Shown piece by piece: positions 3,088 to 20,652 of a DNA stretch of 28,654 bases (its first letter is position 1; the number at the start of each line of letters is the position of its first letter). Both the position numbers and the translations under genes were made by a program. The stretch is taken from the NCBI GenBank assembly GCA_003647035.1, contig QMMB01000001.1, positions 1 through 28,654 of the forward strand, written 5' to 3'. The notes under the pieces are model-generated. The model worked only from the letters and a program-made list of their open reading frames with translations, ran no database searches and was not told the origin of the DNA. Source of the DNA: Deltaproteobacteria bacterium. Its GTDB lineage: Bacteria > Myxococcota_A > Polyangia > Polyangiales > Houyiibacteriaceae.

Positions 3088-3100
3088 GCCCGGAGAAACG

Positions 3101-4705: not shown

Positions 4706-4741
4706 CGCATGCCGACAAGTACCCAAGCCCAAGAGGAACCC

Positions 4742-5716
4742 ATGTCCACCGCACGAGAAAAAGAAGAGGAGCTTTTTCCTGGCTTTCCGCGTGGTTGGTT
4801 TGTCATCGGAATCTCCAGCGAGCTGGCGCCGAGCGACGTCAAACCGATCAAGTACTTCGACCGAGAGATGGTCTTGTACCGAGGCGAAAGTGGCGCGGCG
4901 ATCGTGCACGACGCGTTTTGCCCGCACCTAGGAGCACACCTCGGTCATGGGGGCAAAGTCGTCGGAGAGACGATTCAATGTCCGTTCCACGCCTGGCGGT
5001 TCGACGAAACCGGTAAGTGCGTTGAGGTGCCCTACGCCAAACGGATTCCGCCGCGCGCCTGCGTGAAGAATAACCCTGTCCAGGAGCACAACGGGTTGAT
5101 CTGCATGTGGAATGCCCATGTCGAGGGCGAGGAGCCCACCTGGGAGATCCCCGACGTCCCCGAATACGGCAGTGAAGGCTGGACCGATTGGGGTTCTGTT
5201 CTCATCGACATCAAGACGCACCCGAAAGAGATCGTCGAGAACCTCGCTGACAAGGGCCATTTCGGTCCGGTTCACGGGACATGGGCCAACGAGTTTGGAA
5301 ACGAGTTCAAGGACCACATCGGTATTCAGTACGTCAAAGGGGTTGCGTATCCGCGAGGCGGCGGCGAGGATCACTTCGAGCTGCAATCTACGTACTACGG
5401 GCCCGGCTACATGCTCACCGAGATGCAGAGCGTTCTGCCGAACATCATGCTTCTGTGTCACACCCCGGTGGACAAGAACAACGTTCACGTTCGAATCGGC
5501 GCGATGATCGACATTTCGAACGTCAAAAAGGGTAAAGAGCAATTCGAGCAGGGCTACCGCGAGAACATCATCGTCGGTTTCAAAGAGGACATCGCGATTT
5601 GGGAAAACAAAAAGTACCGAACGCGACCGATTCTGTGTGACGGTGACGGCGACGTGGGAGCTCTGCGCCGCTGGTATCAGAAGTTCTACATGCCCCAAGC
5701 AGAGGTTGGATATTAG
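4742..5716 (+). CDS. kshA: Rieske non-heme iron steroid oxygenase, KshA-like (3-ketosteroid 9-alpha-hydroxylase / Neverland superfamily)
   Basis: Rieske motif CPHLGAHL...CPFHAW. Mononuclear Fe motif ENLADKGHFGPVH. KshA-like C-domain TYYGPGYM, LCHTPV, FKEDIAIWENK and LRRWYQKFY. Start chosen at ATG 4742 (GAGGAA RBS); an alternative ATG is at 4709. Confidence 0.7.
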   Translation: MSTAREKEEELFPGFPRGWFVIGISSELAPSDVKPIKYFDREMVLYRGESGAAIVHDAFCPHLGAHLGHGGKVVGETIQCPFHAWRFDETGKCVEVPYAKRIPPRACVKNNPVQEHNGLICMWNAHVEGEEPTWEIPDVPEYGSEGWTDWGSVLIDIKTHPKEIVENLADKGHFGPVHGTWANEFGNEFKDHIGIQYVKGVAYPRGGGEDHFELQSTYYGPGYMLTEMQSVLPNIMLLCHTPVDKNNVHVRIGAMIDISNVKKGKEQFEQGYRENIIVGFKEDIAIWENKKYRTRPILCDGDGDVGALRRWYQKFYMPQAEVGY

Positions 5717-5718
5717 AA

Positions 5719-6297
5719 ATGGATGACCGAGCCAAGCGCATCGTTGAAACGGCCGTCGCACTCGCGGAGCGCGACGGATACCAGGCGGTACGGCTGCGGG
5801 ACGTTGCAGCCAGTGCACAGGTAGCGCTCGGCACGGTCTACAAGCGTTTCGCCAGCAAAGAGGAGATCCTCATCGCGGCGTTGGAGCAAGAGAGCGAGAG
5901 GCTCGTCGCTAAGATCGGCAAGAAGTCGGTTCCGGGCGACGGCCCACAGGAGCGGGTGCGCTTTGTTTTTACCGCGCTGACGAAGGGGCTTCTTCGGCGG
6001 CCGAATCTTGCCAAGGCCTTGGTCCGGTCGTTGGCGTCTGGGGACCCGAACATCACCGAGCGCGTGGCGAGCTTCCACGCCCTCATCACGGCACTGGTCA
6101 TGGCGGCGATTCGCGGCGAAGCGGCCGCCGACGAGAGTGAGTGGGGGGGCGACGTCGACGAGCGCGAGCGCACCATCTCCTCGATCCTGCAGAACGTGTG
6201 GTTCGCGTCGTTCGTCGGATGGGCCGGCGGCCTCCACGACGGGCCCCAAGTCCTCGAAGACGTCGACAAAACGGCGAAGCTTCTGCTAGCGGCGTAG
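5719..6297 (+). CDS. kstR: TetR-family repressor, KstR-like
   Basis: HTH GYQAVRLRDVAASAQVALGTVYKRFASK resembles KstR (GYEAVQMRAVADRADVAVGTLYRYFPSK). C-domain ISSILQNVWFASFVGW resembles KstR IARVISDVWLSNLLAW. It sits in a steroid operon with a KstR box nearby. Confidence 0.7.
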   Translation: MDDRAKRIVETAVALAERDGYQAVRLRDVAASAQVALGTVYKRFASKEEILIAALEQESERLVAKIGKKSVPGDGPQERVRFVFTALTKGLLRRPNLAKALVRSLASGDPNITERVASFHALITALVMAAIRGEAAADESEWGGDVDERERTISSILQNVWFASFVGWAGGLHDGPQVLEDVDKTAKLLLAA

Positions 6298-6334: not shown

Positions 6335-8446
6335 GTGCTTCCTTGCCCCAAGGGGTGCGAGGACACGCTTGCAGAAGAGGTGCGAAACCTCGACGTGGAA
6401 GTCACCGCTGTGCGGCCAACCGCCGTGCATGCGCGCGGCACGTTGCAAGAGGGATATCGGTTGTGCCTGTGGTCTCGCGTCGCATCCCGGGTCTTGCTTC
6501 CGCTCGTCGAGCTCGATGCCGAAGACGACACCGCTCTCTATGATGCGCTCCGCGGGGTCGCTTGGTGGGAACATTTCGACGCCAATCAGACGTTCGCGAT
6601 TGGCAGCTCTCAGGCTCCGAAGAGCCCTTTCCCTTCGCACTACTGGGTGCAGCGAGCGAAGGATGCGATCGTCGATAGCTTTCGGGATCACTCCGGTACG
6701 CGCCCGAGCATCGACAAGAAGGACCCGGCGATACGGTTTCACCTGCACATCGGCGAGTCGCATCACGAGCTCGCCCTCGATTTCTCGGGGGAGGGCTTGC
6801 ACCGGCGGGGCTACCGGCAGGCGGGCGGCAAGGCTCCGCTCAAGGAGAATCTAGCCGCGGCCATTCTATATCTCGCCGGCTGGCCGCAAGCGGCGCGCAA
6901 GGGCCTGACGCTGATGGATCCGACCTGCGGCTCGGGCACGTTCTTGATCGAAGCAGCCTTGATGGCGACGAACTGTGCGCCCGGGCTCTTGCGAGCGCGC
7001 TTTGGGTTCGAGGATTGGCTGCGGCACGACGATGCGGCGTTCGCCACCGAGCGAGATGCCGCACTGACCGCGCGCCAGGCCGAGTGTCCGGCGAGGATCT
7101 TTGGCTGCGACGCATCGGAGAAGGCATTGTCGTACGTTCGGGACAACCTCGCGGCGGCAGGGGTCGAGCAGCACGTGTCGCTGGCCGTGAAGGAACTGTC
7201 TGCCGTCGAGAAGCCCGCTGAGGGTGGCATCCTCGTGTGCAATCCCCCATACGGTCATCGGCTAGGTGACGAGGGCACGCTGTTCCTGTTCTATCAGGCG
7301 CTCGGCGATACGTTGAAGCGCGTCTTTGACGGATGGACCGCCTACGTGTTTGCGGCGCACGGCGGCAACCTCAAGCACCTCGGACTTCGACCGACGCGCC
7401 GCCACGTTCTGTACAACGGTTCGATCGAGTGCCGTCTGGTAGAGATCCCCATACGCGGTGTGGTCGGGGGAGAATCGGCCAGGCCGCCGGGTTGGCGAAA
7501 GCCCAGCGAGAAGGCCCAGATGTTCGCCAACCGCATCAAGAAGAACAAGAAAAAGTGGGGGAGATGGGCGAAGCGCAGCGGCATCGAATGCTACCGGATC
7601 TACGACGCGGACATTCCGGAGTACAACGTCGCCGTTGATCGCTATCAGACCAAAGCGGTGGTTCACATCTTCCAGAAGGAGCGAGACGCCAACGACGACG
7701 GCGCGAAGCAGCGAGTTCAAGACGTGTTGATGACGCTTCCCGATGCGCTGGGCATCGACCCTGACGACCTCATCGTGAAAGTCAGACGCAAACACGACGA
7801 GGGTGACCAGTACGCCCGCATCTCGCAGCAAGAAGCTGAGATGATTGTCGGTGAGGGTGACCTTCGCTTCGTGGTGAACCTGGAAGACCGGATCGACACG
7901 GGCCTCTTCTTGGACCACCGCGCAGTGCGCGCGTACGCAGCGGAGCAATGCAAAGGGAAGCGCATGCTGAATCTGTTTTCGTACACCTGCTCGGTGAGCG
8001 TCGCGGCGGCGGTCGGCGGCGCCAAGCAGACCACGAGCGTCGACCTCTCGAACACCTACCTCGACTGGGGCAAGAAGAACTTCAAGGCCAACGATCTCGA
8101 CGTCGCAAGACACCGCTTCATCCGCGACGACGCCACCCGCTGGATGGCCAGAGACCGCAACAGCTACGACTGGATCTTCATCAACCCGCCCACCTTCTCG
8201 CGCTCTAAGATGAGCAAGGGCGACTTCAACATCCACAAGGACCACAAGGCGCTGATCGAAAGCGCCATGAGCTCCCTAGACAAAAAGGGCGAGCTCCTCT
8301 TCACCACCCACGCCCGGGCCTTCGAGTTGGACGAGGTAATCACAAGCCGCTTCCACGTCGAAAACGTGACGAAGCAGTTCGTCCCCCCCGACTTCGTCCG
8401 ATACCCCTTCCAAGCCTTTCGCCTGAGGACACACTCCACCCGCTGA
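6335..8446 (+). CDS. rlmKL: Bifunctional 23S rRNA methyltransferase RlmL-RlmK (m2G2445 / m7G2069)
   Basis: YRLCLWSRVASRVLL, GLHRRGYR, APLKENLAAA, DPTCGSGTFLIEAA, NPPYG, CYRIYDADIPEY, DTGLFLDHR, LNLFSYT and INPPTFS. The start is uncertain (GTG 6335 versus a non-canonical ACG at 6317). Confidence 0.95.
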   Translation: MLPCPKGCEDTLAEEVRNLDVEVTAVRPTAVHARGTLQEGYRLCLWSRVASRVLLPLVELDAEDDTALYDALRGVAWWEHFDANQTFAIGSSQAPKSPFPSHYWVQRAKDAIVDSFRDHSGTRPSIDKKDPAIRFHLHIGESHHELALDFSGEGLHRRGYRQAGGKAPLKENLAAAILYLAGWPQAARKGLTLMDPTCGSGTFLIEAALMATNCAPGLLRARFGFEDWLRHDDAAFATERDAALTARQAECPARIFGCDASEKALSYVRDNLAAAGVEQHVSLAVKELSAVEKPAEGGILVCNPPYGHRLGDEGTLFLFYQALGDTLKRVFDGWTAYVFAAHGGNLKHLGLRPTRRHVLYNGSIECRLVEIPIRGVVGGESARPPGWRKPSEKAQMFANRIKKNKKKWGRWAKRSGIECYRIYDADIPEYNVAVDRYQTKAVVHIFQKERDANDDGAKQRVQDVLMTLPDALGIDPDDLIVKVRRKHDEGDQYARISQQEAEMIVGEGDLRFVVNLEDRIDTGLFLDHRAVRAYAAEQCKGKRMLNLFSYTCSVSVAAAVGGAKQTTSVDLSNTYLDWGKKNFKANDLDVARHRFIRDDATRWMARDRNSYDWIFINPPTFSRSKMSKGDFNIHKDHKALIESAMSSLDKKGELLFTTHARAFELDEVITSRFHVENVTKQFVPPDFVRYPFQAFRLRTHSTR
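7985..8428 (+). repeat. Direct repeat copy 1 (3' 148 codons of rlmKL)
   Basis: Manual codon alignment with 11338-11781 gives 444 bp, 35 substitutions and 2 single-base indels (~92% identity). Confidence 0.95.
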
Positions 8447-8551
8447 GAAGCAGCGTGGTATCGTGCACTTTGGGGAGCAGAAGAGTGATCCCTGGGGACG
8501 GGAGCGTGGCCTTTTCTTTCGCAAGGGAGGTCTACGGGTCATAACGCGGGG

Positions 8552-9580
8552 ATGAGCGAGCCGTCGAGTGCCGGCCCACCGGGGCGAGATGCAGCTGCTC
8601 GGGTCGGCGCCCGCGTCGCGGCCCTACGTGAACTCGGCGAGCATATCGCCGAACGCGTGCCCTCGCGGTTGCGCAAGGGCCTGCGTCGGGCGCTCTCGGT
8701 CGGATTCTTCGTCGTGATCGCGCTGGTGCTTTACCGACAACTCTCCGGCACCGATTGGTCCGAGGTACTGCGTTCGGTCCCGCGATCGCCCTGGTTCTAC
8801 GTCATCTTCCTTGTGCGATATCTCAACGTTCCGATCACAGACGCGCTCTCCTACTCGGCCGTTTGGGCGACGAATCTCTTCCGTCACTTCGGCGTCTTCC
8901 TCATGAAGCGCGTGATCAATAGCTCGTTCTCCGGGGGTTCGGGCGACGTCTACTTCCTGCTGTGGACAGTCAGAACGCTCCGCGTGACCTATTGGCAGGC
9001 CTTCTCCGCAGGGAAGGATGTGACCTTACTTTCCGCAGCAGCTGCCAACGCGGTTGCCGTCGTGGTGTTAGGGGCTTACTTGGCCTTTGGCGATCTGTCC
9101 CTCGTACAGGCCGTGAGCCCGGCGGTGCTGGGTCTCGTCATCGGAGTCACCCTTGCGACCGCCGTATTGAGCCTATTCGTCGTTCGTTTTCGGGGTAAGG
9201 TCCTGGGGATCGGCACCGACGTCATGTGGCGCATCCTCGGGTACCACGGTGCACGAAGCATTGCCAAGATCCTCTTGCTGGGGCTGCAGTGGACCGTCGG
9301 CCTGCCCGGGTCGAGGTTCTCGGACTGGATTGGCTTGCTCGTCGTGGACATGCTGGTTGCTCGCACACCGTTGGTGCCGGCGCGAGAGTTCCTGTTTCTC
9401 TCGCTGGCCTTGAGTCTGGCGGGCACGATCGACGCCCCCGAAGTGCAGGTGACCGCGATGTTCCTGACAGATACCGCCCTGATGCAACTCGGTTCCGTGG
9501 CCTCACTGATTGCCGGGATCGTGTGGAAGTCCAAGCCCGACCCGCTCCCAAGGGCGCCTGAGAACGGAGGACCGAAGTAG
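8552..9580 (+). CDS. Multi-pass membrane protein, resembling lysylphosphatidylglycerol-synthase TM / flippase-like domain proteins
   Basis: Several hydrophobic stretches (GFFVVIALVLY, WFYVIFLV, AVAVVVLGAYLAFG, VLGLVIGVTLATAVLSLFVV, FLFLSLALSLAG). No catalytic motif recognised. Adjacent to a glycosyltransferase. Confidence 0.55.
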   Translation: MSEPSSAGPPGRDAAARVGARVAALRELGEHIAERVPSRLRKGLRRALSVGFFVVIALVLYRQLSGTDWSEVLRSVPRSPWFYVIFLVRYLNVPITDALSYSAVWATNLFRHFGVFLMKRVINSSFSGGSGDVYFLLWTVRTLRVTYWQAFSAGKDVTLLSAAAANAVAVVVLGAYLAFGDLSLVQAVSPAVLGLVIGVTLATAVLSLFVVRFRGKVLGIGTDVMWRILGYHGARSIAKILLLGLQWTVGLPGSRFSDWIGLLVVDMLVARTPLVPAREFLFLSLALSLAGTIDAPEVQVTAMFLTDTALMQLGSVASLIAGIVWKSKPDPLPRAPENGGPK

Positions 9581-9627
9581 CAGACGTCCGACTGGACCGA
9601 GCCTCCGTGCGCGGGTAGACCGGCCTA

Positions 9628-10614
9628 GTGCGTATCGCCTACTTCGTACATGGCAACGGTCGCGGCCACGCGATGCGCGCTCGCTCGCTCGTCCCGGCGC
9701 TCCGCACGCACGGTCACGACGTGCACGTCCATGCGAGCGGCGAGGCGGTCGCGATGCTGCGCGACCTCGGGGGCGCCGAGGTCGACGCTTTCCTTCCGGG
9801 GAGGCAGCTCGCATCACGGTTCGCCGCGCGTCTCGCCACCGATCGTCGACTCCTGGGCGCCCTGCGGCCTGACGTGATCGTCGTGGACGGCGATGCGCCA
9901 TCTCTTCACGCGGCGGCCATGCTGCGGGTCCCGAGCGTCGCGATCGGGCACGGCCTCATCTTCGCGCACTGCCGTCTACCGATCGCGCTTCCGCTTCACC
10001 ATCGCGCGCGCGAGGCGCTGAGTGCGGCGAGCGCCTCATGGCTCGCGCACCGCGTGATCGTAGTGCACTTTGGCGTGCTCGAGTCCTTCGATCCACGCGT
10101 GGTCGTCGCGCGACCCGACCCGCGACCTGAGCTCTTCGAAGGCGACACACGGCCAGGGGACAAGCTCGTTGTGTACGCGGGGACGACGGATCTCTCTGCC
10201 TACGTTCGAGGGCTGCACACGCGCGGACACCGGCTCGTGGTGTTCGGCCGCGTGGCGAATCTGCCTGACGGCGTGGTGGCCGAGGCTCCCGACGTGGCGC
10301 GTTTCGCGGCCGCGCTTCGCGGCTGTCGCGGCATCGTGGGGACCGCCGGCTCCAACCTCGTTTCAGAGGCGGGCGCGCTCGGTCGCCCGCTCCTCGCGCT
10401 TGCGCCTGGGCACATGATCGAGCAGCAGGTCAACGCTCGTCTCGCCGAGCGCGACGGCTTCGCGATAGCGGCCGCGGCCGGGCGGATTGATGTCCCTGCA
10501 ATCCAACGCTTCGAGGCGCTCCTGGAGCGCGGCGTGCCGCGGATCGAGCCGCCGACACCGACCGTGACCGAGGCCTTGTCCGCGTGCCTCGCCGAGCTTG
10601 CAGGCGCCGTTTGA
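9628..10614 (+). CDS. GT-B glycosyltransferase (MJ1255/VC2487-like, Glyco_trans_1_3/GT28-like)
   Basis: N-terminal RIAYFVHGNGRGHAMR (GxGxGH) and C-terminal GIVGTAGSNLVSEAGALGRP...EQQVNA nucleotide-sugar-binding motif. Confidence 0.75.
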   Translation: MRIAYFVHGNGRGHAMRARSLVPALRTHGHDVHVHASGEAVAMLRDLGGAEVDAFLPGRQLASRFAARLATDRRLLGALRPDVIVVDGDAPSLHAAAMLRVPSVAIGHGLIFAHCRLPIALPLHHRAREALSAASASWLAHRVIVVHFGVLESFDPRVVVARPDPRPELFEGDTRPGDKLVVYAGTTDLSAYVRGLHTRGHRLVVFGRVANLPDGVVAEAPDVARFAAALRGCRGIVGTAGSNLVSEAGALGRPLLALAPGHMIEQQVNARLAERDGFAIAAAAGRIDVPAIQRFEALLERGVPRIEPPTPTVTEALSACLAELAGAV

Positions 10615-10645
10615 CGGTTCGCGGCCTGTGCGCCATGCCCCGCAT

Positions 10646-11311
10646 ATGACGGTTGTCTCTCCTCTCGACGCGCCGTGGGCCCTCGGCGAGCGAGCTTATT
10701 CTCAGATCCTCCGACACCTCCGGGCGATCGACGCGCGCACGATCGTCGAGCTCGGTAGCGGCGCGTCGACCGCGGCGCTTGCTCGCGACCTCCCCGATGC
10801 GACGATCCTTTCGGTCGATGACGACGCGAGTTATTTCGCGCGCACCCGCGCGCAGCTACCCGTGAACGCGCGCGTGACGCTCGTGCACCGTCCCCTCGTG
10901 TGGCAGCGCCATGGCGGCGCGCCCTACCTGAGCTACGAACGCGGCACGTTCCCTCGCGCCGTGGACGCACTCCTCGTCGACGGGCCCCCTCACTGGACGC
11001 GCCGCGGCCGCGAGGCATGTCTTTACCAGGTAATGCCGTCGCTCGAGGTCGGCGCGCGGATCTTCTTGGACGACTATCGGCGCACAGCGGAGCAGCGGAC
11101 GGTGCGGCACTGGCTCAGCGCCTACCCAAATGTCCTGCGTCTCGTCGAGGTGATCGAGGAAGGTGACTACGTCGCAGTGCTCGAGAAGACCGCAGAAGCG
11201 ACTGAGCCACGGCACACGCTCTGGCGCCGCGCCGATGCGCAGTTGCAAGCGATGTTGCAGCCGCTCACGAGCCGTGTGCGTAGCGTCGCACTGCGGTCAC
11301 GACGGCGGTAG
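10646..11311 (+). CDS. Class I SAM-dependent methyltransferase (Methyltransf_24-like)
   Basis: IVELGSGAST (motif I), LSVDDD, LLVDGPP and IFLDDYRR. Start at ATG 10646; an alternative TTG at 10598 overlaps the GT stop. Confidence 0.75.
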   Translation: MTVVSPLDAPWALGERAYSQILRHLRAIDARTIVELGSGASTAALARDLPDATILSVDDDASYFARTRAQLPVNARVTLVHRPLVWQRHGGAPYLSYERGTFPRAVDALLVDGPPHWTRRGREACLYQVMPSLEVGARIFLDDYRRTAEQRTVRHWLSAYPNVLRLVEVIEEGDYVAVLEKTAEATEPRHTLWRRADAQLQAMLQPLTSRVRSVALRSRRR

Positions 11312-11337
11312 CGGACAAGCACACCCACGAGTAGCCC

Positions 11338-11814
11338 ACGTGTTCGGTCAGTGTCGCGGCGGCGGTCGGCGGCGCCAAGCAGACCACGAGCGTCGATCTC
11401 TCGAACGCCTACCTCGACTGGGGCAACAAGAACTTCAAAGCCAACGACCTGGACCCCCGCGAGGCACCGTTTCATTCGCGATGCGCCACCCGCTGGATGG
11501 CCAGAGACCGCAACAGCTACGACTGGATCTTCATCAACCCGCCCACCTTTTCGCGCTCGAAGATGAGCAAGGGCAACTTCAACATCCACAAAGACCACAA
11601 GACGCTGATCGAAAGCGCCATGAGCTCCCTAGACATGAAGGGCGAGCTCCTCTTCACCACCCACGCCCGGGCCTTCGAGTTGGACGAGGTAATCACAAGC
11701 CGCTTCCACGTCGAAGACGCAACAAAACAGTTCGTCCCCCCCGACTTCACCCGCTACCCCTTCCAAGCCTTCCGCCTCCGGAAAAGGGGACCGTCCCCTT
11801 TGTCGAAAGGATAA
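11338..11814 (+). pseudogene. rlmKL: 5'-truncated rlmK C-terminal fragment (direct repeat copy 2, homology 11338-11781)
   Basis: Reads TCSVSVAAAVGGAKQTTSVDLS...FINPPTFSRSKMSKG...YPFQAFRLR. In-frame TAG at 11332-11334 and no start codon until Met 11497. It lacks the SAM-binding LNLFSY start. There is a +1 insertion (C run 11454-11458) and a -1 deletion (after 11483). Confidence 0.9.
11783..11801. terminator. Palindrome AAAGGGGAC-C-GTCCCCTTT (REP-like / bidirectional terminator-like)
   Basis: Perfect 9-bp arms. On the minus strand the hairpin is followed by TTTT, about 29 nt past the amidohydrolase stop. A near-identical copy is at 20669-20690. Confidence 0.65.
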
Positions 11815-11829
11815 TTCGCTCGGACCCTT

Positions 11830-12702
11830 CTATTGCTCCAACTTGAAGACGCGCTGCGCATTCTGACGCAGGAACTTCGGCCAGACGTGGTCCTTGAAGG
11901 GCACGTTTTGCATCTCGGTGAAGATACGCTCTAGTGACAGCCCCATCGGGAAGTAGCCGGCGAACATGATCTTGTCGGCTCCGCGCGTGTTCGCGTAGTG
12001 GATGATCGACTTCGGGTAGTGCTTCGGCGCGAAGGCGCTCGTGCTGTAGTAGAGGTTGGGGTATTTGAGCATCAGCTTGACTGCCAGGTCGACCCAGGGC
12101 TCGCCACCGTGGCGCATCACGAATTTCAGCTCCGGGAAAAACCAGCAAACTTCGTCGATGTGTTCGACCTTCTGCGGCTCCATTGGGATGCGCGGCCCGG
12201 GGACGCCCACGCAGACGCAAATCGGGATGTCTAGGTCAACGCAGGTCGCGTAGATCGGGTAGTACTTTTTGTCGTTCAACGGGACCTGTGGGCACAGGCC
12301 CGACGGAAATCCGGTCACAGCCTTGAGACCGTGCTCCTTGTGCAGCTTCCGGATCTTCCGGACCTCCTCCATGCCGTTGTTCGGATTCGCCCCGTACGAC
12401 GTGAAGAAGCGGTCCGGGTACTTGCGGCATGCGTCGAGGTTGGTCGAGTTCGGCCCGGAGATGCCCAGCATCGCCTGCTCGATGCCCCACTTGTCCATCT
12501 CTGCGATCGCGTAACCGACGTAGTCCTTCTGATCGACGATCTGCGGGATGTCCTTGAACATGTACTCGGCCGGCATCTTGAACTGCTTCCGGCTCTCTTC
12601 GTCCAGCAGCAGCGGCTTGATGAACTCGTACCAAGCTGTGGGGTCCCCGTCGGGGATGTTCATCATCAGATCGATGGCTTTGAGGCCACTCGGTATCGGC
12701 AT
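11830..12702 (-). CDS. Amidohydrolase_2-family TIM-barrel protein (atypical metal ligands)
   Basis: YPDRFF, KYYPIYATCVDLDIP, FPELKFVMRHGGEPW, KYPNLYYSTSA, DKIMFAGYFP and FLRQNAQRVFKL are typical of the family. Divergent from hsaA. Confidence 0.8.
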   Translation of the reverse strand: MPIPSGLKAIDLMMNIPDGDPTAWYEFIKPLLLDEESRKQFKMPAEYMFKDIPQIVDQKDYVGYAIAEMDKWGIEQAMLGISGPNSTNLDACRKYPDRFFTSYGANPNNGMEEVRKIRKLHKEHGLKAVTGFPSGLCPQVPLNDKKYYPIYATCVDLDIPICVCVGVPGPRIPMEPQKVEHIDEVCWFFPELKFVMRHGGEPWVDLAVKLMLKYPNLYYSTSAFAPKHYPKSIIHYANTRGADKIMFAGYFPMGLSLERIFTEMQNVPFKDHVWPKFLRQNAQRVFKLEQ

Positions 12703-12756
12703 GAAACGGCGTCCTTTCAGGGGTCCCCAATCGGCCCTATGCTCTCACGGGCCAGC

Positions 12757-12785
12757 TGGACATGTCACAACCCGTGGGCTAGAAC
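12757..12785 (+). promoter_or_regulatory. Possible sigma70-type promoter for the hsaA operon (TGGACA-17 nt-TAGAAC)
   Basis: The -35 matches TTGACA at 5/6, the spacer is 17 nt, and the -10 matches TATAAT at 4/6 and overlaps the KstR box. Inferred from pattern only. Confidence 0.3.
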
Positions 12786-12793
12786 ACGTTCTA
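12780..12793. promoter_or_regulatory. KstR operator TAGAACACGTTCTA
   Basis: Exact match to the established KstR consensus TnnAACnnGTTnnA, with perfect 6-bp arms (TAGAAC/GTTCTA). It lies in the divergent intergenic region, 77 nt from the amidohydrolase start and 95 nt from the hsaA start. Confidence 0.8.
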
Positions 12794-12888
12794 CTTTATG
12801 GCCCGAGGCGGCCCTTCTGTAAAGCCGGGACCACACGACTCATCGAATGCCATCGGCCCCCAGCCCGTGGCGCTTGGAGACACGAGCA

Positions 12889-14079
12889 ATGCACGGAGAT
12901 CAGAGCCCCATCCCGACACGCGAAGAACTGATTGAGAGCGCCCGCGAACTGGCGCCGACGCTGCAGGAACGATCCAAGAAGGCCGCCGAGCTGCGGAGGA
13001 TTCCCGACGAGACCATCGAGGATTTCCATCGGCTCGGCTTCTTCAAGGTCGTTCAGCCCAAACGATTTGGCGGCTACGAGATGGACCCGTCCATCATTTT
13101 CGACCTGCAGCTTGAGCTCGGCCGTGGGTGCGCGTCGAGTGCCTGGGTCTACGGCGTGCTGAACGTGCACTCCTGGCAGCTCGCGCTCTTCGCGCCCGAG
13201 GCGCAGGACGAGGTGTGGGGCGAAGATCCCAAGACGCTGATTTCCTCGTCGTACATGCCCGTCGCGAAAACCGAGTGGGTCGATGGTGGCGTGAAGCTCA
13301 GCGGGCGTTGGTCGTTTTCGAGCGGGTGCGACGCCTGCCAGTGGGGATTCCTCGGTGGCTTCGTACCGAACGAAGAGGGCAAGCCACCGGACATGCGCAC
13401 ATTCCTGGTGCCGCGCGCCGACTACGAGATCATCGACAACTGGTATGTGTCGGGGCTCCGGGGCTCGGGCAGTAAGGATGTCGTCGTCGACGGTGCGTTC
13501 GTTCCGGACCACCGCATGCACAAGTTCTCGGATGGTTTCAGGCAGCAGAGCCCGGGCAACGAGATCAATCCATCGCCCGTGTACAAGTACCCGTTCGGCC
13601 AGATTCACGTTCGCTCCGTTTCCACGCCGGCGGTTGGCGCTGCCTTCGGGGCGCTCGACTCCTACGTCGACTTCATGAAGAACAAGGTGTCCCAGGCGAC
13701 GGGCGGCAAGGCCAAGGAGTCATTCACCAACAGCATGGTGGCTGCCGAAGCCACGGCTGTGCTCGACCGCGAGGTCTTGACGCTACGGCGCAACTTCGAA
13801 GAGATGGCCGGCTATCTACAGAGGGGCGAGAAGATCCCGCTCGACCGACGGGTCCACTTCCGCAACGACTCGGCGCGGGCCGTTCGCGTATCGACGGAGG
13901 TCGTCCAGCAGCTGTTCATCGCGTGCGGCGCTCGCGCGGCTTTCGAGGACCACCCTATCAACCGCCATTTTCAAGATATTCACACGATTCGACTTCACCA
14001 CGCGAACAGTCCTGACACGCCCGGCTCCAACATGGGGGGCGTGCTGTTCGGCCAAAAGAGCACGGACTTCTTCATCTGA
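12889..14079 (+). CDS. hsaA: Flavin-dependent monooxygenase oxygenase subunit, HsaA/TesA1-like (3-HSA 4-hydroxylase)
   Basis: LRRIPDET, QPKRFGG, VHSWQLALFAPEAQDEVWGEDP, ISSSY, WSFSSGCD, WYVSGLRGSGS and RLHHAN match HsaA. Start moved to ATG 12889 (GGAGA RBS). Confidence 0.85.
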   Translation: MHGDQSPIPTREELIESARELAPTLQERSKKAAELRRIPDETIEDFHRLGFFKVVQPKRFGGYEMDPSIIFDLQLELGRGCASSAWVYGVLNVHSWQLALFAPEAQDEVWGEDPKTLISSSYMPVAKTEWVDGGVKLSGRWSFSSGCDACQWGFLGGFVPNEEGKPPDMRTFLVPRADYEIIDNWYVSGLRGSGSKDVVVDGAFVPDHRMHKFSDGFRQQSPGNEINPSPVYKYPFGQIHVRSVSTPAVGAAFGALDSYVDFMKNKVSQATGGKAKESFTNSMVAAEATAVLDREVLTLRRNFEEMAGYLQRGEKIPLDRRVHFRNDSARAVRVSTEVVQQLFIACGARAAFEDHPINRHFQDIHTIRLHHANSPDTPGSNMGGVLFGQKSTDFFI

Positions 14080-14081
14080 AC

Positions 14082-14882
14082 ATGGATGCCACGGCGCGAA
14101 AGCAGAGGATCGAGGAGCTTGGAGACGAGCTGTACGAGGCCATGCGTGCGCGCCGGACGCTGAGTCCCCTCACGGAACGCTGGCCAGAGATCACAATTGA
14201 AGATGCGTATCACGTGTCGCTGAGAATGGTGGACCGGCGTGTGCAAGGCGACGGTGAGAAGATCATCGGCAAGAAGATCGGTGTAACCAGTCTTGCGGTG
14301 CAAGAGATGCTGGGTGTCTTTCGGCCGGACTTCGGGTATCTCACGGACAAAATGCACTACCCGAACGGCGGTCCGATGCCGATCAGCGAGCAGTTGATTC
14401 AGCCACGCGCCGAAGGCGAGATCGCGTTCAAGTTGAAGAAAGACTTGAAGGGTCCGGGCGTCACAAACGAGGACGTCTTGGAAGCGACGGAGTACGTGAT
14501 GGCCTGCTTCGAGGTTGTGGACAGCCGGATTCACGACTGGAAGGTCAAGATCCAAGACACCGTCGCAGACAACGCGAGCTGCGGATTGTTCGTCCTCGGT
14601 GACGAACATGCCGACCCCAAGGTGCTCGATTTCCCGAACCTGAAAATGCGCGTCTACAAGAACGGCGAGCCTCTCAGCGAGGGACTGGGCTCAGCGGCCC
14701 TCGACTCACCACTCAACTGTGTCAGCTGGCTGGCGAACACTCTGTCGGAGTTTGGGATTGGCTTGAACGCGGGTGACGTCGTGCTTTCCGGTTCGTTGGT
14801 GCCCCTCGAGCCGGTCGTGGCGGGCGACGAGATGCGCCTCGAAGTCGAAGGGATCGGAACCGCGTCCGTGCGGTTCACATAG
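14082..14882 (+). CDS. hsaE: 2-hydroxypenta/hexa-2,4-dienoate hydratase (HsaE/TesE/XylJ/MhpD family)
   Basis: DAYHVSL, GKKIGVTS, PDFGYLTD, QPRAEGEIAF, FEVVDSRI, DTVADNAS, WLANTL and VLSGSLVP. Confidence 0.9.
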   Translation: MDATARKQRIEELGDELYEAMRARRTLSPLTERWPEITIEDAYHVSLRMVDRRVQGDGEKIIGKKIGVTSLAVQEMLGVFRPDFGYLTDKMHYPNGGPMPISEQLIQPRAEGEIAFKLKKDLKGPGVTNEDVLEATEYVMACFEVVDSRIHDWKVKIQDTVADNASCGLFVLGDEHADPKVLDFPNLKMRVYKNGEPLSEGLGSAALDSPLNCVSWLANTLSEFGIGLNAGDVVLSGSLVPLEPVVAGDEMRLEVEGIGTASVRFT

Positions 14883-14894
14883 GAGTAGCGAGAG

Positions 14895-15791
14895 ATGACG
14901 ACGAAAGTGAAGGCAGCGATCATCGGGTCCGGGAACATCGGCACCGATCTGCTCTACAAGGCCCTTCGAAGCGAGATCATCGAGCCGGTATGGATGGTCG
15001 GCATCGATCCGGAGTCCGAAGGCCTCAAGCGAGCGAAGGAGCTTGGCCTCAAGACGACGGCCGACGGTGTCAAGGGCATGGAGCCGCACATCGCCGACGA
15101 CAAAGTCCAAATCGCCTGGGACGCGACCAGCGCGTACGTGCACGAGTCGAACAACGAGATCGTCAAAAAGCACGGCGTCAGGATGGTCGACCTCACCCCG
15201 GCCGCCATCGGGCCCTTCTGTGTGCCCCCCGTCAATCTGCAAGACATGGTTGGGCGTGACGAACAGAATGTGAACATGGTGACCTGCGGTGGTCAGGCGA
15301 CAATTCCCATGGTTGCCGCGGTGAGTCGCGTGCAGGCTGTCGAGTACGGCGAGATCATCGCGACGGTATCTTCGAAGTCGGCAGGGCCGGGAACCCGGAA
15401 GAACATCGACGAGTTCACCCGCACCACGGCCAGGGGCGTCGAGGTCGTCGGCGGTGCGGAGCGCGGCAAGGCCATCATCATCATCAATCCCGCGGAGCCA
15501 CCACTCATGATGCGTGACACGATTCACTGTCTGACCAAGGATGCTCCAAAGCAAGAAGAGATCATCGAATCAGCTCAGCAGATGATAGCCGAGGTCCAGA
15601 AATACGTGCCCGGATACACACTCAAGAACGGGCCGGTGTTCGATGGCAATCGCGTGTCGTTCTACATGGTCGTCGAGGGGCTTGGCGACTTCCTCCCGAA
15701 GTACGCGGGCAATCTCGACATCATGACGGCAGCTGGCCTACGGACGGCCGAGCTCATCGCTGAGGAAATCCAGCGCGCGGAGGCAGCATGA
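14895..15791 (+). CDS. hsaG: Acylating acetaldehyde/propionaldehyde dehydrogenase (HsaG/TesF/XylQ/MhpF family)
   Basis: [46 protein letters not shown] and [11 protein letters not shown]. Confidence 0.93.
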
Positions 15792-16816
15792 ATCTCGAAG
15801 GTAAGAAGGTTACGCTCCACGACATGAGCCTGCGTGATGGGATGCATCCCCAGCGCCACCAGCTCACGACCGAGCAAATGATTCAGGTGGCGACCGCGCT
15901 CGATGCCGCCGGTGTGCCGCTCATCGAGGTGACGCACGGCGACGGCCTCGGCGGCGCATCGGTGAACTACGGTTTTCCGGCCGCAAGCGATGAGGACTAC
16001 CTGAGGGCCGTCGTGCCGAAGATGAACAATGCGAAGGTCTCCGCGTTGCTGATTCCGGGGATCGGCACGGTGGACCACCTGCGGATGGCGCACGATTGCG
16101 GTGTGCACACGATTCGTGTGGCCACGCATTGCACGGAGGCGGATGTTTCGGAGCAGCACATCGCCCTCGGCGCGAAAATGGAAATGGACACGGTGGGCTT
16201 CCTGATGATGGCCCACATGATTCCCCCCGAGCAGCTTCTCGAGCAGGCTAAGCTCATGCAAGGTTACGGCGCGAACTGCATCTACATCACCGATTCGGCT
16301 GGCTATATGTTGCCCGACCACGTCACCGCGCGCGTTGGACACCTGCGCGAAAACCTCAACGCGGATGTGGAGGTCGGTTTCCACGGGCACCACAACATGC
16401 ACCTGGGCATCGCGAATTCACTCGCAGCACTCGAAGCGGGCGCGGGGCGCGTTGATGGCTCCGTGGCGGGCATGGGAGCCGGCGCAGGCAATACGCCACT
16501 CGAGGTGTTCGTCGCCGTGCTCCATCGCATGGGCGTCGAAACCGGCATCGACATGTGGAGGCTCATGGATGTCGCTGAGGACATCGTCTACCCGCTCATG
16601 ACCCACAAAGTTCGCGCAGATCGCGACTCCCTGACACTTGGGTATGCGGGCGTGTACTCGTCCTTCCTGCTTCATGCGCAGCGGGCAGCCAAAAAGTACG
16701 GCCTCAAGTCGACTGACATCCTCCTCGAGCTTGGACGAATGAAGACCGTCGGTGGGCAGGAAGACATGATCGAGGACGTCGCACTCGACATGAAGAAGGC
16801 CGGAGCCGCGGAGTGA
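15788..16816 (+). CDS. hsaF: 4-hydroxy-2-oxovalerate/hexanoate aldolase (HsaF/TesG/XylK/MhpE family)
   Basis: [53 protein letters not shown] and GGQEDMI. ATGA overlap with the dehydrogenase. Confidence 0.93.
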
Positions 16817-16820
16817 CCGC

Positions 16821-18026
16821 GTGAGCGACCTAGAGGAATTTCGTGAGGATGCGCGGGCGTGGGTTCGCGAGAACGCGCCCGACTCGCTCCGGGGGACGAG
16901 TGGCAGCGGCCCGTTCGAAGGCTACTGGGGCGGCTCGAAGTGCGAGGAAACCGACCCGGACCTGTTGAGGTGGCGCGACCTCGGCATCGAGAAGGGGTGG
17001 ACAGCTCCAAGTTGGCCGAAAGAATACGGCGGTGGGGGGCTCAGCCACGAGCACGAAGAGATCATCCACGCGGAGATGAAGGCGATTGGCGTGCCACGGC
17101 CGGTCGCAGGGCAGGGCCTCGCGATGTTTGGGCCTGTGCTGCTCGAGTACGGCAATGACGCACAGAGGGCGGCACACCTGCCTGCGATTGCTCGCGGTGA
17201 GATGCGTTGGTGTCAGGGGTATTCGGAGCCCAATGCGGGGTCCGATCTCGCGAGCCTCCAGTTGAAGGCAGAGCGGGACCGTGATGAATTCGTGTTGAAC
17301 GGCCAGAAGGTTTGGACCTCGCACGCCAATCTGAGCGACTGGATCTGCTGCCTGGCCCGGACGGATCCGAACGCGCCCAAGAAACAGATGGGCATTTCGG
17401 TGATCCTCGCCGACCTCAATACGCCCGGGATCACGGTGAAGCGAATCGATCTGATCAGCGGGTACTCGCCTTTCTGCGAAACCTTTTTCGACGACGTCCG
17501 CGTGCCCGTCGGCAATCTCGTGGGCAAGGAGAACGAAGGGTGGACGATCGCCAAGGCGATCCTCGACCACGAGCGCTCATCGATCGGTCGCTCGATCGCC
17601 CGGCAGCCGGGGTCGGCGCAGCGCGAGGTCGTCGGCCGGACGCGCAAGCATCTCGGCGTGGCCGAGGGCGTCATCCCCGACCCGTTGCTTCGTGATGAGA
17701 TCGCTGCGCTTGGCATGCTCGAAGAGGCGTTTCACCTCACGCTTGCTCGCATTCAGCAAAGCGCCGCAAGCGGTACGCCAGGGCCCGAAGGCTCCATCAC
17801 CAAGATCGTGGGCACCGACCTCAAGCAGATGCGTTTCGAGCTCGGGATGAAAGTCGCTGGCGTCGACGGATTGGGGTGGGAAGGGCCGGGCTTCGACGAG
17901 GACGACCTTCAGTACACCCGGGATTGGCTGCGGTCGCGCGCAAGCACCATCGAGGGAGGCTCGTCCGAGATCCAAAAGAACATCGTCTCCAAACGTGTGC
18001 TCGGCTTGCCGGAGGGGAAGAAATGA
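16821..18026 (+). CDS. Acyl-CoA dehydrogenase, catalytic subunit of a probable alpha2beta2 pair
   Basis: WCQGYSEPNAGSDLASL, NGQKVWTS, FCETFFDDVRVP, LDHER (candidate catalytic Glu) and TIEGGSSEIQKNIV. Confidence 0.88.
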   Translation: MSDLEEFREDARAWVRENAPDSLRGTSGSGPFEGYWGGSKCEETDPDLLRWRDLGIEKGWTAPSWPKEYGGGGLSHEHEEIIHAEMKAIGVPRPVAGQGLAMFGPVLLEYGNDAQRAAHLPAIARGEMRWCQGYSEPNAGSDLASLQLKAERDRDEFVLNGQKVWTSHANLSDWICCLARTDPNAPKKQMGISVILADLNTPGITVKRIDLISGYSPFCETFFDDVRVPVGNLVGKENEGWTIAKAILDHERSSIGRSIARQPGSAQREVVGRTRKHLGVAEGVIPDPLLRDEIAALGMLEEAFHLTLARIQQSAASGTPGPEGSITKIVGTDLKQMRFELGMKVAGVDGLGWEGPGFDEDDLQYTRDWLRSRASTIEGGSSEIQKNIVSKRVLGLPEGKK

Positions 18027-19168
18027 GCGGGCATACGGCGCCGTCCCTTCTTCTGAACGACGAGCAACAGATGCTCTCGAAGACGGCGCACCAATTCATC
18101 CACGACCGCGCGCCGGTCGCTCGCCTTCGGACCCTCCGTGACTCGAAAGACGAGACTGGGTTCTCTCGCGAGCTTTGGAACGAGATGGCGGAGCTCGGTT
18201 GGCTCGGTCTCCAAATACCGGAGCAGTACGATGGTATGGGCCTCGGCTTTTTCGATCTCTGTGTCGTCCTCGAGCAGAGCGGCCGCGAGTTGATGCCGGA
18301 GCCATTCGTGTCGACCCTTTTGCTCGGCACGCAAACGCTTCTGCTCGGCGGAACCGATGCGCAGAAGAAGGCTCTGCTCCCTGGCATCGCGTCTGGTGAA
18401 ACGATAGTGACCCTGGGCTACGAAGAGGCCGGGTCGCATGGAGATGCCTCGATGGTCGCGACGACGGCTCGCAAATCGACGGCCGGCTTCGAGCTCAGCG
18501 GGGCGAAGCTTCAGGTCCTCGACGGCCACCTTGCCGAGCGGATCATCGTATCTGCCACCACTTCGGATTCGGGTTACACGCTCTTCCTAATCGACCCGGC
18601 CCGTTCGGGTGTCACGATCACGCGCCAGTTCCGAATCGACGGACTGAACGCAGCCATCGTTCAGCTCGACGCAGTGCCGGTGGAGCGTGACGACGTCATC
18701 GGCGAGATCGGTGGCGGAGCGGTCCTCCTCGAGGCGGTGTTCGACCGTGCCGGGGTGGGTTTGTCGGCGCAGATGCTGGGCGCCTCGGAGCAAGCCTTTG
18801 CCGACACGATCGAATACCTCAAGGAACGCGAGCAGTTCGGCGTGCCCATTGGGTCATTCCAGGCGCTTCAGCACCGTGCCGTATCAGTGTACACGGAGTT
18901 GGCGCTAACCCGCTCGGCGGTCCTTGCCGCCGCCCGCGCAATCGACGACGCGCCAGATGATGTCCCGCGACTAGCGTCGCTCGCCAAGGCCATCGCCTCG
19001 GAGACGTTCATGCACGCCGCCAAGGAAGCCATCCAAATGCATGGCGGCATTGGCGTGACCGATGAGCACGACATCGGCTTCTACATCAAGCGTGCACAAG
19101 CGACCTACATGACTTTCGGAAAGCCTTCGCAACACCGGCAACGCTGGGCGGAGCTCCACGGTTACTAG
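18023..19168 (+). CDS. Acyl-CoA dehydrogenase, partner subunit of a probable alpha2beta2 pair
   Basis: REQFGVPIGSFQALQHR and AIQMHGGIGVTDEHD are present, but the SEPxxGSD and IxGG motifs are absent. Start moved to ATG 18023 (ATGA overlap with the upstream ACAD). Confidence 0.88.
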   Translation: MSGHTAPSLLLNDEQQMLSKTAHQFIHDRAPVARLRTLRDSKDETGFSRELWNEMAELGWLGLQIPEQYDGMGLGFFDLCVVLEQSGRELMPEPFVSTLLLGTQTLLLGGTDAQKKALLPGIASGETIVTLGYEEAGSHGDASMVATTARKSTAGFELSGAKLQVLDGHLAERIIVSATTSDSGYTLFLIDPARSGVTITRQFRIDGLNAAIVQLDAVPVERDDVIGEIGGGAVLLEAVFDRAGVGLSAQMLGASEQAFADTIEYLKEREQFGVPIGSFQALQHRAVSVYTELALTRSAVLAAARAIDDAPDDVPRLASLAKAIASETFMHAAKEAIQMHGGIGVTDEHDIGFYIKRAQATYMTFGKPSQHRQRWAELHGY

Positions 19169-19196
19169 CGACCCCTAAAGAAGAGCGAGAAGCACG

Positions 19197-19949
19197 ATGA
19201 AAAGGTTTGAAGGAAAGAACGTTGTAATCACCGGCGCAGCGGCGGGCATCGGCCAGGCCACGGCGAAGCGCATCGCCGAGGAGGGTGGCAACCTCGCTCT
19301 CATCGACATCAATGCCGAGGGACTGGCTGCCACGAAGAAGATAGCCGAAGACTTGGGCGTCAAGACGTGGGTCTACGAGTGCAACGTCACCGACGGTGCC
19401 CGTGTGAAAGAGGTGATCGACCAGGCCGCGAAAGACATGGGCGGCTTCGACACCCTGTGTCACTGCGCCGGAATTCTGCGCACCTACCACACGCACGAGA
19501 TGACCTTCGATCAATGGCACGAGATCATCGACATTAATCTCAATGGCACGTTCTACGTCAACCAGGCCGCACTCCCGCACCTGTTGAACAACCGCTTCAG
19601 CGCCCTGGTGAACTGTTCATCGACTTCCGCCCTCGGTAGCCATCCGTGGATGGCCGCCTACGCGGCCTCGAAGGGCGGCATCCTCTCGATGACCCGCGCG
19701 CTCTATCAGGAATACGTAAAGCAAGGTCTGCGCGCCAACTGTGTAATCCCCGGCGGAATCGCCACGGCGCTACACGGCGACTTCAAGGCCCCCGAAGGCG
19801 CCGACATGGAGCTCCTCAAAGGCGCGATGCCCTTCGTAGGCTTCGCCAAGCCCGCCCACGCAGCAAGCGTCATCGCCTTCCTAGCCTCCGACGACGCCCG
19901 CTACATCAACGGCACAGAAATCCGAGCCGACGGCGGCGCCCTCTCCTAG
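19197..19949 (+). CDS. Classical short-chain dehydrogenase/reductase (SDR)
   Basis: TGAAAGIG, HCAGI, INLNG, catalytic S...YAASK and YINGTEIRADGG. Confidence 0.9.
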   Translation: MKRFEGKNVVITGAAAGIGQATAKRIAEEGGNLALIDINAEGLAATKKIAEDLGVKTWVYECNVTDGARVKEVIDQAAKDMGGFDTLCHCAGILRTYHTHEMTFDQWHEIIDINLNGTFYVNQAALPHLLNNRFSALVNCSSTSALGSHPWMAAYAASKGGILSMTRALYQEYVKQGLRANCVIPGGIATALHGDFKAPEGADMELLKGAMPFVGFAKPAHAASVIAFLASDDARYINGTEIRADGGALS

Positions 19950-19963
19950 GCGCTCGCGTGGGG

Positions 19964-19997
19964 GCGGCGGGGTGGGGATGAAGGGCCCACCCGCCGC
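19964..19997. terminator. GC-rich hairpin between the convergent SDR and DJ-1 genes
   Basis: GCGGCGG(G)GTGGG pairs with CCCACCCGCCGC (12 bp with one bulged G, 9-nt loop). No U-tract. Confidence 0.45.
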
Positions 19998-20019
19998 GTA
20001 TACGTCTCGCTCGGGCTAT

Positions 20020-20652
20020 CTAGTTCTTCAGCTTCGCAAGCTCCTGCACGCGAGCGAGTACCGTTGCGTCAACTTTGTGGAGCGCGCCCGCGTCGTGTGG
20101 TGGCTGTGGATCGTACTCGATCATGAGCTGTAGTGCCTTTGCCGTAGTCGCATCGGTGAGGCGTTCGGCCAATTGCAGCGCCATGTCGATGCCGCTCGAG
20201 ACGCCGGCTGCGGTGATGATCTTGCCTTCGACCACGACGCGGTCTTCGGAGGGCTTCGCTCCGTACTTGGCCAGAAGGTGGCGCGAGGCGAAGTGTGTGG
20301 TGGCGCTCAGCCCATCCAAGATTCCGGCTGCCGCGAGCAGCAAGGAACCCGTGCAAACCGACGTCGTGAACTGCGTCGTCTCATGCGCTGTGCGAATCCA
20401 CTGCAGGATTACAGCGTCATGCACCAGGGCTCTCGTGCCGATACCACCCGGGACCAAGAGAATGTCGGGGCTTGGTACCTCGTCGAACGTCCGATCGACG
20501 GTGAGACCCAGGAACCCGTTGTCGGTCCGCACTTCTCCCTTTCGGTGGCCGACGAAGCGGACCTCTGCTCCAGGAAGGCGCTGCAGGACCTCGTACGGCC
20601 CAACCGCGTCGAGGGCCGTGACTTGGTCGAACAGGGCGACTGCGATTTCCAT
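20020..20652 (-). CDS. DJ-1/PfpI (ThiJ) family protein, isonitrile-hydratase-like subgroup
   Basis: LDAVGPYEVL, DILLVPGG, nucleophile elbow SVCTGS, ATTH, ITAAGVSSGIDMAL and QLMIEYDPQPP. Confidence 0.85.
   Translation of the reverse strand: MEIAVALFDQVTALDAVGPYEVLQRLPGAEVRFVGHRKGEVRTDNGFLGLTVDRTFDEVPSPDILLVPGGIGTRALVHDAVILQWIRTAHETTQFTTSVCTGSLLLAAAGILDGLSATTHFASRHLLAKYGAKPSEDRVVVEGKIITAAGVSSGIDMALQLAERLTDATTAKALQLMIEYDPQPPHDAGALHKVDATVLARVQELAKLKN

Follow-up and report, generated by a model that had tools for sequence, protein, structure and literature searches.

A KstR-type palindrome between divergent amidohydrolase and hsaA-like genes

The gap between an hsaA-like gene and a divergent amidohydrolase gene in an uncultured member of the Myxococcota contains a palindrome that resembles the operator of KstR, and the question raised by this locus is whether a relative of KstR acts there. 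Steroid catabolism is described as being under KstR control in actinobacteria, and Proteobacteria have been given other regulators (PMC6678751, PMC4810484, PMC5790920). The KstR site is TAGAAC(N2)GTTCTA, or TnnAACnnGTTnnA (Kendall 2007, PMC1995591), a consensus that is also found in PMC5348764. An earlier note on this DNA had recognized the consensus as the KstR site and hsaA as a mycobacterial KstR target, and the literature bears out both, the gap between Rv3570c (hsaA) and Rv3571 in M. tuberculosis containing two KstR sites that were positive in EMSA (PMC1995591).

The window, by which we mean the whole analyzed stretch of 28,654 nucleotides (28.6 kb), is the entire contig C1 of a Polyangiales-type metagenome-assembled genome (MAG) from marine sediment. 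The assembly comprises 570 contigs and 3.52 Mb at 63% GC, with 90.6% completeness and 2.9% contamination. The palindrome and the genes on either side of it are:

11830-12702, minus strand: gene of the Amidohydro_2 family, divergent from hsaA (Pfam PF04909, E 2.6e-26)
12780-12793, no strand assigned: putative KstR-type operator, perfect palindrome TAGAAC-AC-GTTCTA, i.e. TAGAACACGTTCTA (exact sequence match)
12889-14079, plus strand: HsaA-like flavin-dependent monooxygenase gene, first of its operon (NCBIfam HsaA 406 bits, below the cut-off of 450; next family 254 bits)
14082-16816, plus strand: HsaE-, HsaG- and HsaF-like genes (gene gaps of 2, 12 and -4 nt)
16821-19949, plus strand: two acyl-CoA dehydrogenase (ACAD) genes and an SDR gene, completing the proposed seven-gene unit (gaps of 4, -4 and 28 nt)

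Since the gene following the SDR gene is convergent, a seven-gene hsaA unit is a reasonable assignment. Its HsaE-, HsaG- and HsaF-like members correspond to 2-oxopent-4-enoate hydratase, acetaldehyde dehydrogenase and 4-hydroxy-2-oxovalerate aldolase, respectively. The closest solved structure to the amidohydrolase is that of the uncharacterised BB4693.

With the ATG at 12889 taken as the hsaA start, the gap extends from 12703 to 12888 and has the previously given length of 186 nt. This start is supported by a GGAGA 8 nt upstream and by the NCBIfam HsaA alignment, which begins just past the ATG. The AT-rich palindrome at 12780-12793 had been reported to match the consensus exactly, and we could confirm its position as well as its full agreement with the 14-bp inverted repeat, ideally TAGAAC-N2-GTTCTA. 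It is the single match to the TnnAACnnGTTnnA or TNNAACNNGTTNNA consensus in the window, for which 100 dinucleotide shuffles gave a mean of 0.08 matches to TNNAACNNGTTNNA and at least one match in 7 cases. A second box with up to two mismatches to TAGAACNNGTTCTA was not found in the window, and matches with three mismatches are noise. The earlier estimate of chance occurrence (0.185^6 x 0.315^2, or ~4e-6 per position and ~7e-4 per 186-nt gap) is arithmetically correct. A reading of the palindrome as an RNA hairpin was ruled out, since no hairpin can form from 6 bp of stem closed by a loop of 2 nt.

KstR-type boxes are enriched before steroid catabolic genes

A scan of the 3.5-Mb genome for the motif, which the earlier note had proposed as a check, revealed an enrichment before steroid genes. 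The loose consensus has 40 matches where a third-order Markov model predicts ~20 (~2-fold), the strict class T[AG][GA]AAC-NN-GTT[CT][TC]A is represented by 17 boxes with 0.75 expected (~23-fold), and the perfect form TAGAACNNGTTCTA occurs five times with 0.05 expected (~100-fold). All 17 strict-class boxes sit in promoter regions: the 13 loose-consensus matches in called intergenic DNA are without exception of the strict class, and the remaining four strict-class boxes lie 1-229 nt within ORF calls whose starts are over-extended, as exemplified by the C355 protein, in which the NCBIfam alignment begins at residue 137. The other 23 loose matches are all located deep within genes. Scores of a position weight matrix are bimodal, with 17 sites at 20.3 bits or above and the next best site, within a gene, at 18.1 bits; the matrix was trained on the same 17 sites and the scores are in this respect circular, which applies neither to the score gap nor to the difference in location.

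The genes behind these boxes include a second KshA-like gene, which is preceded by two overlapping boxes and followed by an HsaC-like gene, as well as genes for an HsaB-like flavin reductase, a KstD-like protein (570 bits with the 3-ketosteroid dehydrogenase model), a second FAD enzyme and an HsaD-like hydrolase, the latter encoded directly after an HsaC-like gene. Boxes also precede P450, ACAD, DUF35/ChsH2-like, thiolase, enoyl-CoA hydratase and SDR genes, and further boxed genes encode an aldehyde dehydrogenase, a nitronate monooxygenase, an F420-type LLM oxidoreductase and a PaaX-like regulator. The KstR2 operator AnCAAGnnCTTGnT has three matches in the genome, all within genes and attributable to chance, so that no KstR2-type regulon or boxes were found.

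Several of these loci have features of their own. At C111 (L006, 521-549), two KstR-type boxes, TGAAACACGTTCTA followed by TGGAACACGTTCTA, overlap by one base between a sulfatase-like gene and the second KshA-like gene with the HsaC-like gene downstream, which suggests cooperative or tighter repression by tandem operators. At C321 (L011, 3247-3260), the box lies at the start of the PaaX-like regulator gene, suggestive of a second regulatory tier below the KstR-like repressor. At C463 (L015, 2755-2768), a perfect box, TAGAACATGTTCTA, is placed between the KstD-like gene and def, a divergent gene for peptide deformylase; this housekeeping gene may share a steroid-regulated promoter region.

The palindrome is conserved in relatives

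Conservation of the box in relatives had been named as another check. For this comparison we used 49 hsaA loci of relatives that include upstream DNA and encode an HsaA at least 70% identical (70-95%). TAGAAC-NN-GTTCTA is kept before hsaA in 47 of them, at a distance of 63-123 nt that mostly amounts to 107-109 nt, and the divergent arrangement with the amidohydrolase gene is likewise kept. Both exceptions (L056 and L058) are second hsaA copies from genomes that also possess a box-bearing copy. These second copies are 80% identical, have no KstR-type box upstream and may represent a paralogue that is controlled differently.

Across 48 distinct aligned intergenic regions, none of the 12 bases in the two arms varies, and the central pair reads AC, AT, GT, GC or AA. 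Invariant arms around a variable centre are the pattern expected of a site that is read by a dimer. Invariance also extends to the blocks CTGGACA 17 nt upstream of the box, TTTATGG from 2 nt downstream and CTGTAAAG ~24 nt downstream, and to both ribosome-binding sites. The remaining intergenic DNA varies freely, and the box is thus conserved above its surroundings in these orthologous regions.

These data bear on the possibility that the palindrome arose by chance or is purely promoter-related and serves no repressor. Such an explanation could draw on the ~20 matches to the loose consensus that are expected per genome, and also on the left half of the palindrome, which could be a mere -10-like hexamer. 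We nevertheless regard its probability as practically negligible, because the strict class is enriched 23-fold and solely in promoter regions of steroid genes, and because the combination of two invariant arms with a variable centre is the signature of a dimer site. Judged by its sequence context, the palindrome at 12780-12793 is hence very likely a true binding site of a KstR relative.

The ~50 closest HsaA loci (80-95% identity) stem from MAGs labelled Polyangiales, Sandaracinaceae, Polyangiaceae, Myxococcales, Myxococcota or Deltaproteobacteria, several of which belong to the same genus as the host genome. Since the same arrangement is present on contigs of relatives of up to 2.1 Mb, the locus is no binning artefact. 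A recent transfer from Actinobacteria was ruled out: the TetR protein described below and HsaA are only 33-34% and ~44% identical to the actinobacterial proteins, the GC3 of the locus equals that of the genome, and the arrangement is kept across the whole genus and family.

Outside the relatives, the box is absent from hsaA loci of gammaproteobacteria and present in some actinobacterial loci and in a proteobacterial MAG (L070). In the latter, an uncultured non-myxobacterial 'proteobacterium' from Kiruna that is also represented by L120, two perfect boxes are located at 3003-3054, ~1 kb before hsaA, and the MAG encodes a TetR protein that is 41% identical to that of the window. The KstR-type code may therefore reach further Gram-negative lineages.

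The window encodes a KstR-like TetR repressor

A candidate for the protein that would read this site is encoded elsewhere in the same window:

3-5716, plus strand: ChsH2/DUF35-like, two Ltp-type thiolase-like, acyl-CoA ligase and KshA-like genes (same direction as the TetR gene)
5719-6297, plus strand: KstR-like TetR gene (TetR_N plus TetR_C_20; assigned by domains and KstR homology), last gene of the side-chain/KshA operon

The genes in 3-6297, the TetR gene included, share the plus strand and follow one another closely. The TetR protein has a TetR_N helix-turn-helix domain (PF00440, 5e-12) and the KstR-type TetR_C_20 domain (PF17925, 1.4e-11). Its best match in the PDB is M. tuberculosis KstR, with a full-length alignment covering residues 3-190 (E 4e-22), and the match to KstR2 in the PDB is weak (E 2e-4). 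Among the NCBIfam models, KstR likewise comes first with 123.4 bits and the next family follows ~80 bits lower at 43 bits; since this score is below the 280-bit cut-off of the KstR equivalog model NF033703, we refer to the protein as KstR-like and not as a KstR equivalog. Three actinobacterial KstR proteins that served as controls scored above this cut-off (320-342 bits). They are 33-34% identical to the TetR protein and have the recognition-helix pattern R-VA--A-VALGT-Y--F-SK in common with it. The genome contains nine TetR matches in total, of which that at 5719-6297 is the best, the next being a 62-bit match on C39. The earlier proposal of this TetR as the repressor is thus supported, as no other TetR of the genome is closer to KstR and its helix-turn-helix is conserved. 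Close homologues come without exception from Myxococcota MAGs, and a few of them carry the label 'cholesterol catabolism regulator' from the JGI pipeline.

Between the TetR block and the amidohydrolase gene lie an rlmKL gene and a small cassette. While rlmKL directly adjoins the amidohydrolase gene in relatives, ~3.3 kb intervene here (window 6335-11846), with genes at 8552-11311 for a 342-aa ORF of no known function, a glycosyltransferase and a methyltransferase. Sequence corresponding to the 3' end of rlmKL in relatives is present in a small ORF at 11497-11814, and this match together with the extra ~3.3 kb indicates that an insertion duplicated or displaced the rlmKL end.

The repressor gene and the box occur together

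In five relatives with long contigs, the TetR operon consists of genes for an SCP2-like protein, a ChsH2-like protein, two Ltp proteins, FadD, KshA and TetR, in this order; L115, the most distant of the five, yielded no match for KshA. A KstR-type box is situated ~45 nt before the SCP2-like gene and thus heads the TetR operon in all five. In four of them, the amidohydrolase and hsaA genes with their box follow 1-3 kb after the TetR gene. The SCP2-like gene encodes 111 aa (L111, 7210-7545; also L112-L115) and is sterol-carrier-like by sequence. A search of the genome studied here for this gene and the box before the TetR operon yielded only a 37% paralogue on C3, which implies that the stretch before the TetR operon is missing from the assembly; the contig begins within this operon, beyond the point where the relatives have their box. 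On this comparative ground, it is probable that the repressor acts on its own operon as well. KstR likewise represses itself, through a motif that overlaps the -10 element of its own promoter (PMC1995591).

We further determined the distribution of repressor and box in 301 Myxococcota genomes from 208 genera, counting a genome as TetR-positive if it contained a homologue at E <= 1e-30 among the 10 candidates scored per genome. The KstR-like TetR is present in 91 of the 301 genomes and 57 of the 208 genera, and the perfect box in 67 genomes. The box was found in 54 of 91 TetR-positive and 13 of 210 TetR-negative genomes, and as kin are not independent in these overall counts, the pattern within single families is more telling. 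In family f2, the TetR is restricted to one of 23 genomes, which is the sole one with the box. Both likewise coincide in a lone genome in f18 (1/23) and f8 (1/5), and the same three of 10 genomes have both in f21. The 37 TetR-positive genomes without a perfect box mostly have more distant homologues, which may read variant half-sites. Some genomes (G043, G071) are rich in boxes and TetR-negative with 10 candidates scored for each, and their sister genomes are positive.

This distribution also helps to judge whether the boxes might be bound by a different regulator, for instance the second KstR-like TetR on C39 or the boxed PaaX-like protein. The genome has eight further TetR matches, led by the 62-bit match on C39, and a few box-rich genomes of the phylum have no homologue at E <= 1e-30, both of which would be in line with another binder. 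However, the TetR of the window is by far the closest to KstR and has the same recognition helix; its gene is syntenic with the box in relatives, stands behind a box in five of five cases and, in one family after another, is found together with the box. PaaX-type proteins, moreover, recognize a site of a different kind. Hence, we consider it very unlikely that a regulator other than the KstR-like TetR reads these boxes.

Candidate promoter elements flank and overlap the box

How the KstR-like TetR could act from this site depends on the promoters in the gap before the HsaA-like operon, where conserved -35- and -10-like hexamers flank or overlap the box:

12757-12762, plus strand: candidate -35 element TGGACA of the hsaA promoter (CTGGACA invariant in the 48-sequence alignment)
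12780-12785, plus strand: candidate -10 element TAGAAC of the hsaA promoter, identical with the left half of the putative operator (weak hexamer)
12795-12800, minus strand: candidate -10 element CATAAA of the amidohydrolase promoter (TTTATGG invariant in the alignment)
12819-12824, minus strand: candidate -35 element TTTACA of the amidohydrolase promoter (CTGTAAAG invariant in the alignment)

On the plus strand, the arrangement TGGACA-17-TAGAAC was present as the earlier note had described it, with TGGACA at 12757-12762, a 17-nt spacer and then TAGAAC. On the minus strand, the -10 hexamer of TTTACA-18-CATAAA ends 1 nt short of the box, so that the box would cover the predicted start of the transcript. 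As a -10 element, TAGAAC is weak and lacks the conserved final T, and scans for a consensus sigma-70 promoter and for terminators in 12600-12950 and 19900-20100 found nothing, so that the promoter model is built on the conserved hexamers. The geometry recurs in this genome at four further boxes, those of the ACAD, aldehyde dehydrogenase, thiolase and HsaD genes, where a TTGnnn hexamer precedes TAGAAC by 16-18 nt, and in relatives at the SCP2 operon, as TTGACG-17-TAGAAC. In front of the P450, DUF35 and enoyl-CoA hydratase genes, the box follows a TTGAnn hexamer at a distance of 4-7 nt and then fills the spacer and the -10 region.

Public reads contain the stretch in 17 DNA metagenomes, mostly from marine sediment. 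Three RNA-type runs yielded short contigs of relatives, none of which spans the box. One metatranscriptome contig of a relative (12808-13041) begins 15 nt past the box and another (12533-12710) ends 8 nt before the amidohydrolase start codon; they are compatible with the promoter model and too sparse to place transcript starts or to count as evidence.

From these observations, we consider it likely that the palindrome is a KstR-type operator at which a dimer of the TetR encoded at 5719-6297 binds as long as a steroid-derived effector is absent and thereby blocks RNA polymerase at two face-to-face promoters that have this site in common. For the hsaA operon (hsaA, the hsaEGF-like genes, two ACAD genes and the SDR gene), the left half-site would coincide with the -10 element of TGGACA-17-TAGAAC. 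For the amidohydrolase gene, the box would begin 1 nt after the predicted -10 element and cover the transcript start. Since the box would lie on the one -10 element and over the other start, a single dimer would occlude both promoters. By analogy, the effector may be a steroid acyl-CoA thioester, and the site would be one of ~16 operator loci of a regulon for steroid ring A/B and side-chain degradation. The interpretation of the earlier note, namely that the TetR represses both the hsaA operon and the amidohydrolase gene from one site, is supported at the level of sequence, with the use of TAGAAC as a -10 element and the control of both divergent promoters being the predicted parts of it.

The amidohydrolase has no known role in steroid catabolism, and its minus-strand promoter is deduced from conserved hexamers alone. 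One could therefore also conceive of the box as a real operator for the hsaA operon only, with an independent amidohydrolase promoter. We consider this unlikely, as the divergent arrangement and TTTACA-18-CATAAA, with its -10 element ending 1 nt before the box, are invariant in 47 genomes, and boxes between divergent genes also occur at C51, C111 and C463. Joint control of both genes from one site is thus the reading that we favor.

Comparison with known steroid regulators

If correct, the proposed control has several implications. The box in combination with the TetR could serve as a simple sequence marker for steroid-degrading genomes outside the known groups, and genes that are linked to a box but lack an annotation, among them those for the amidohydrolase, the F420-type oxidoreductase and the PaaX-like protein, would gain a candidate role in the use of steroids. 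The regulon would also provide a natural test of how far a TetR protein can diverge while its DNA specificity is kept. Tentatively, and as a view that we would not yet call probable, the KstR code may be old, resident and widespread in the Myxococcota, many families of which include genomes rich in boxes, and uncultured marine-sediment myxobacteria may form a large unrecognized guild of aerobic sterol degraders, the 14-bp code having stayed unchanged in two phyla with repressors of ~33% identity. In this lineage, the TAGAAC half-site would then double as the -10 element of several promoters, and operator and promoter would evolve jointly.

Full-text searches of the literature turned up no publication that deals with KstR or with 9,10-seco steroid catabolism in Myxococcota. 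The phylum is unmentioned in the reviews and surveys PMC6678751, PMC4810484 and PMC5790920, and two large surveys of steroid degraders name neither this phylum nor Deltaproteobacteria. In the Gram-negative Comamonas testosteroni, the 9,10-seco pathway is governed by the LuxR-type activators TesR/TeiR (review PMC6678751). These act on the same pathway in a Gram-negative host, but they are activators and not a TetR repressor with a palindromic operator, and nothing similar is present here. KstR2 (Rv3557c), likewise of the TetR family, represses the catabolism of steroid rings C/D and is released by a CoA thioester, but it recognizes a different palindrome, AnCAAGnnCTTGnT.

The system described here is closest to KstR of Mycobacterium, Rhodococcus and Nocardia (Rv3574/MSMEG_6042; PMC1995591), with which it has in common the identical 14-bp palindrome, a site overlapping what are here candidate promoter elements, ~16 operator loci per genome and targets of the hsaA, kshA, kstD, fadA5, fadE and echA types. 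On the side of the repressor, the TetR_N and TetR_C_20 domains and the recognition-helix pattern agree, and in the relatives' genomes the repressor gene stands behind its own box. Site, placement, regulon content and the predicted self-regulation match those of KstR in Mycobacterium and Rhodococcus (PMC1995591; PMC5348764; review PMC6678751). In contrast to KstR, the host belongs to the Myxococcota and not to the Actinomycetota, the repressor is only 33-34% identical and scores below the NCBIfam cut-off, and its gene is the last of a six- or seven-gene catabolic operon, whereas kstR is a divergent single gene beside fadE34. Moreover, one box here would serve hsaA and the amidohydrolase gene where M. 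tuberculosis has two in the hsaA/Rv3571 gap, KstR2-type boxes are lacking, and the coincidence of half-site and candidate -10 element is recurrent. The case is unusually complete in that repressor, operator, targets, conservation and co-occurrence agree. It does not represent a new mechanism; in a phylum that has not been reported to degrade steroids and in which it was unexpected, it is a familiar type of switch.
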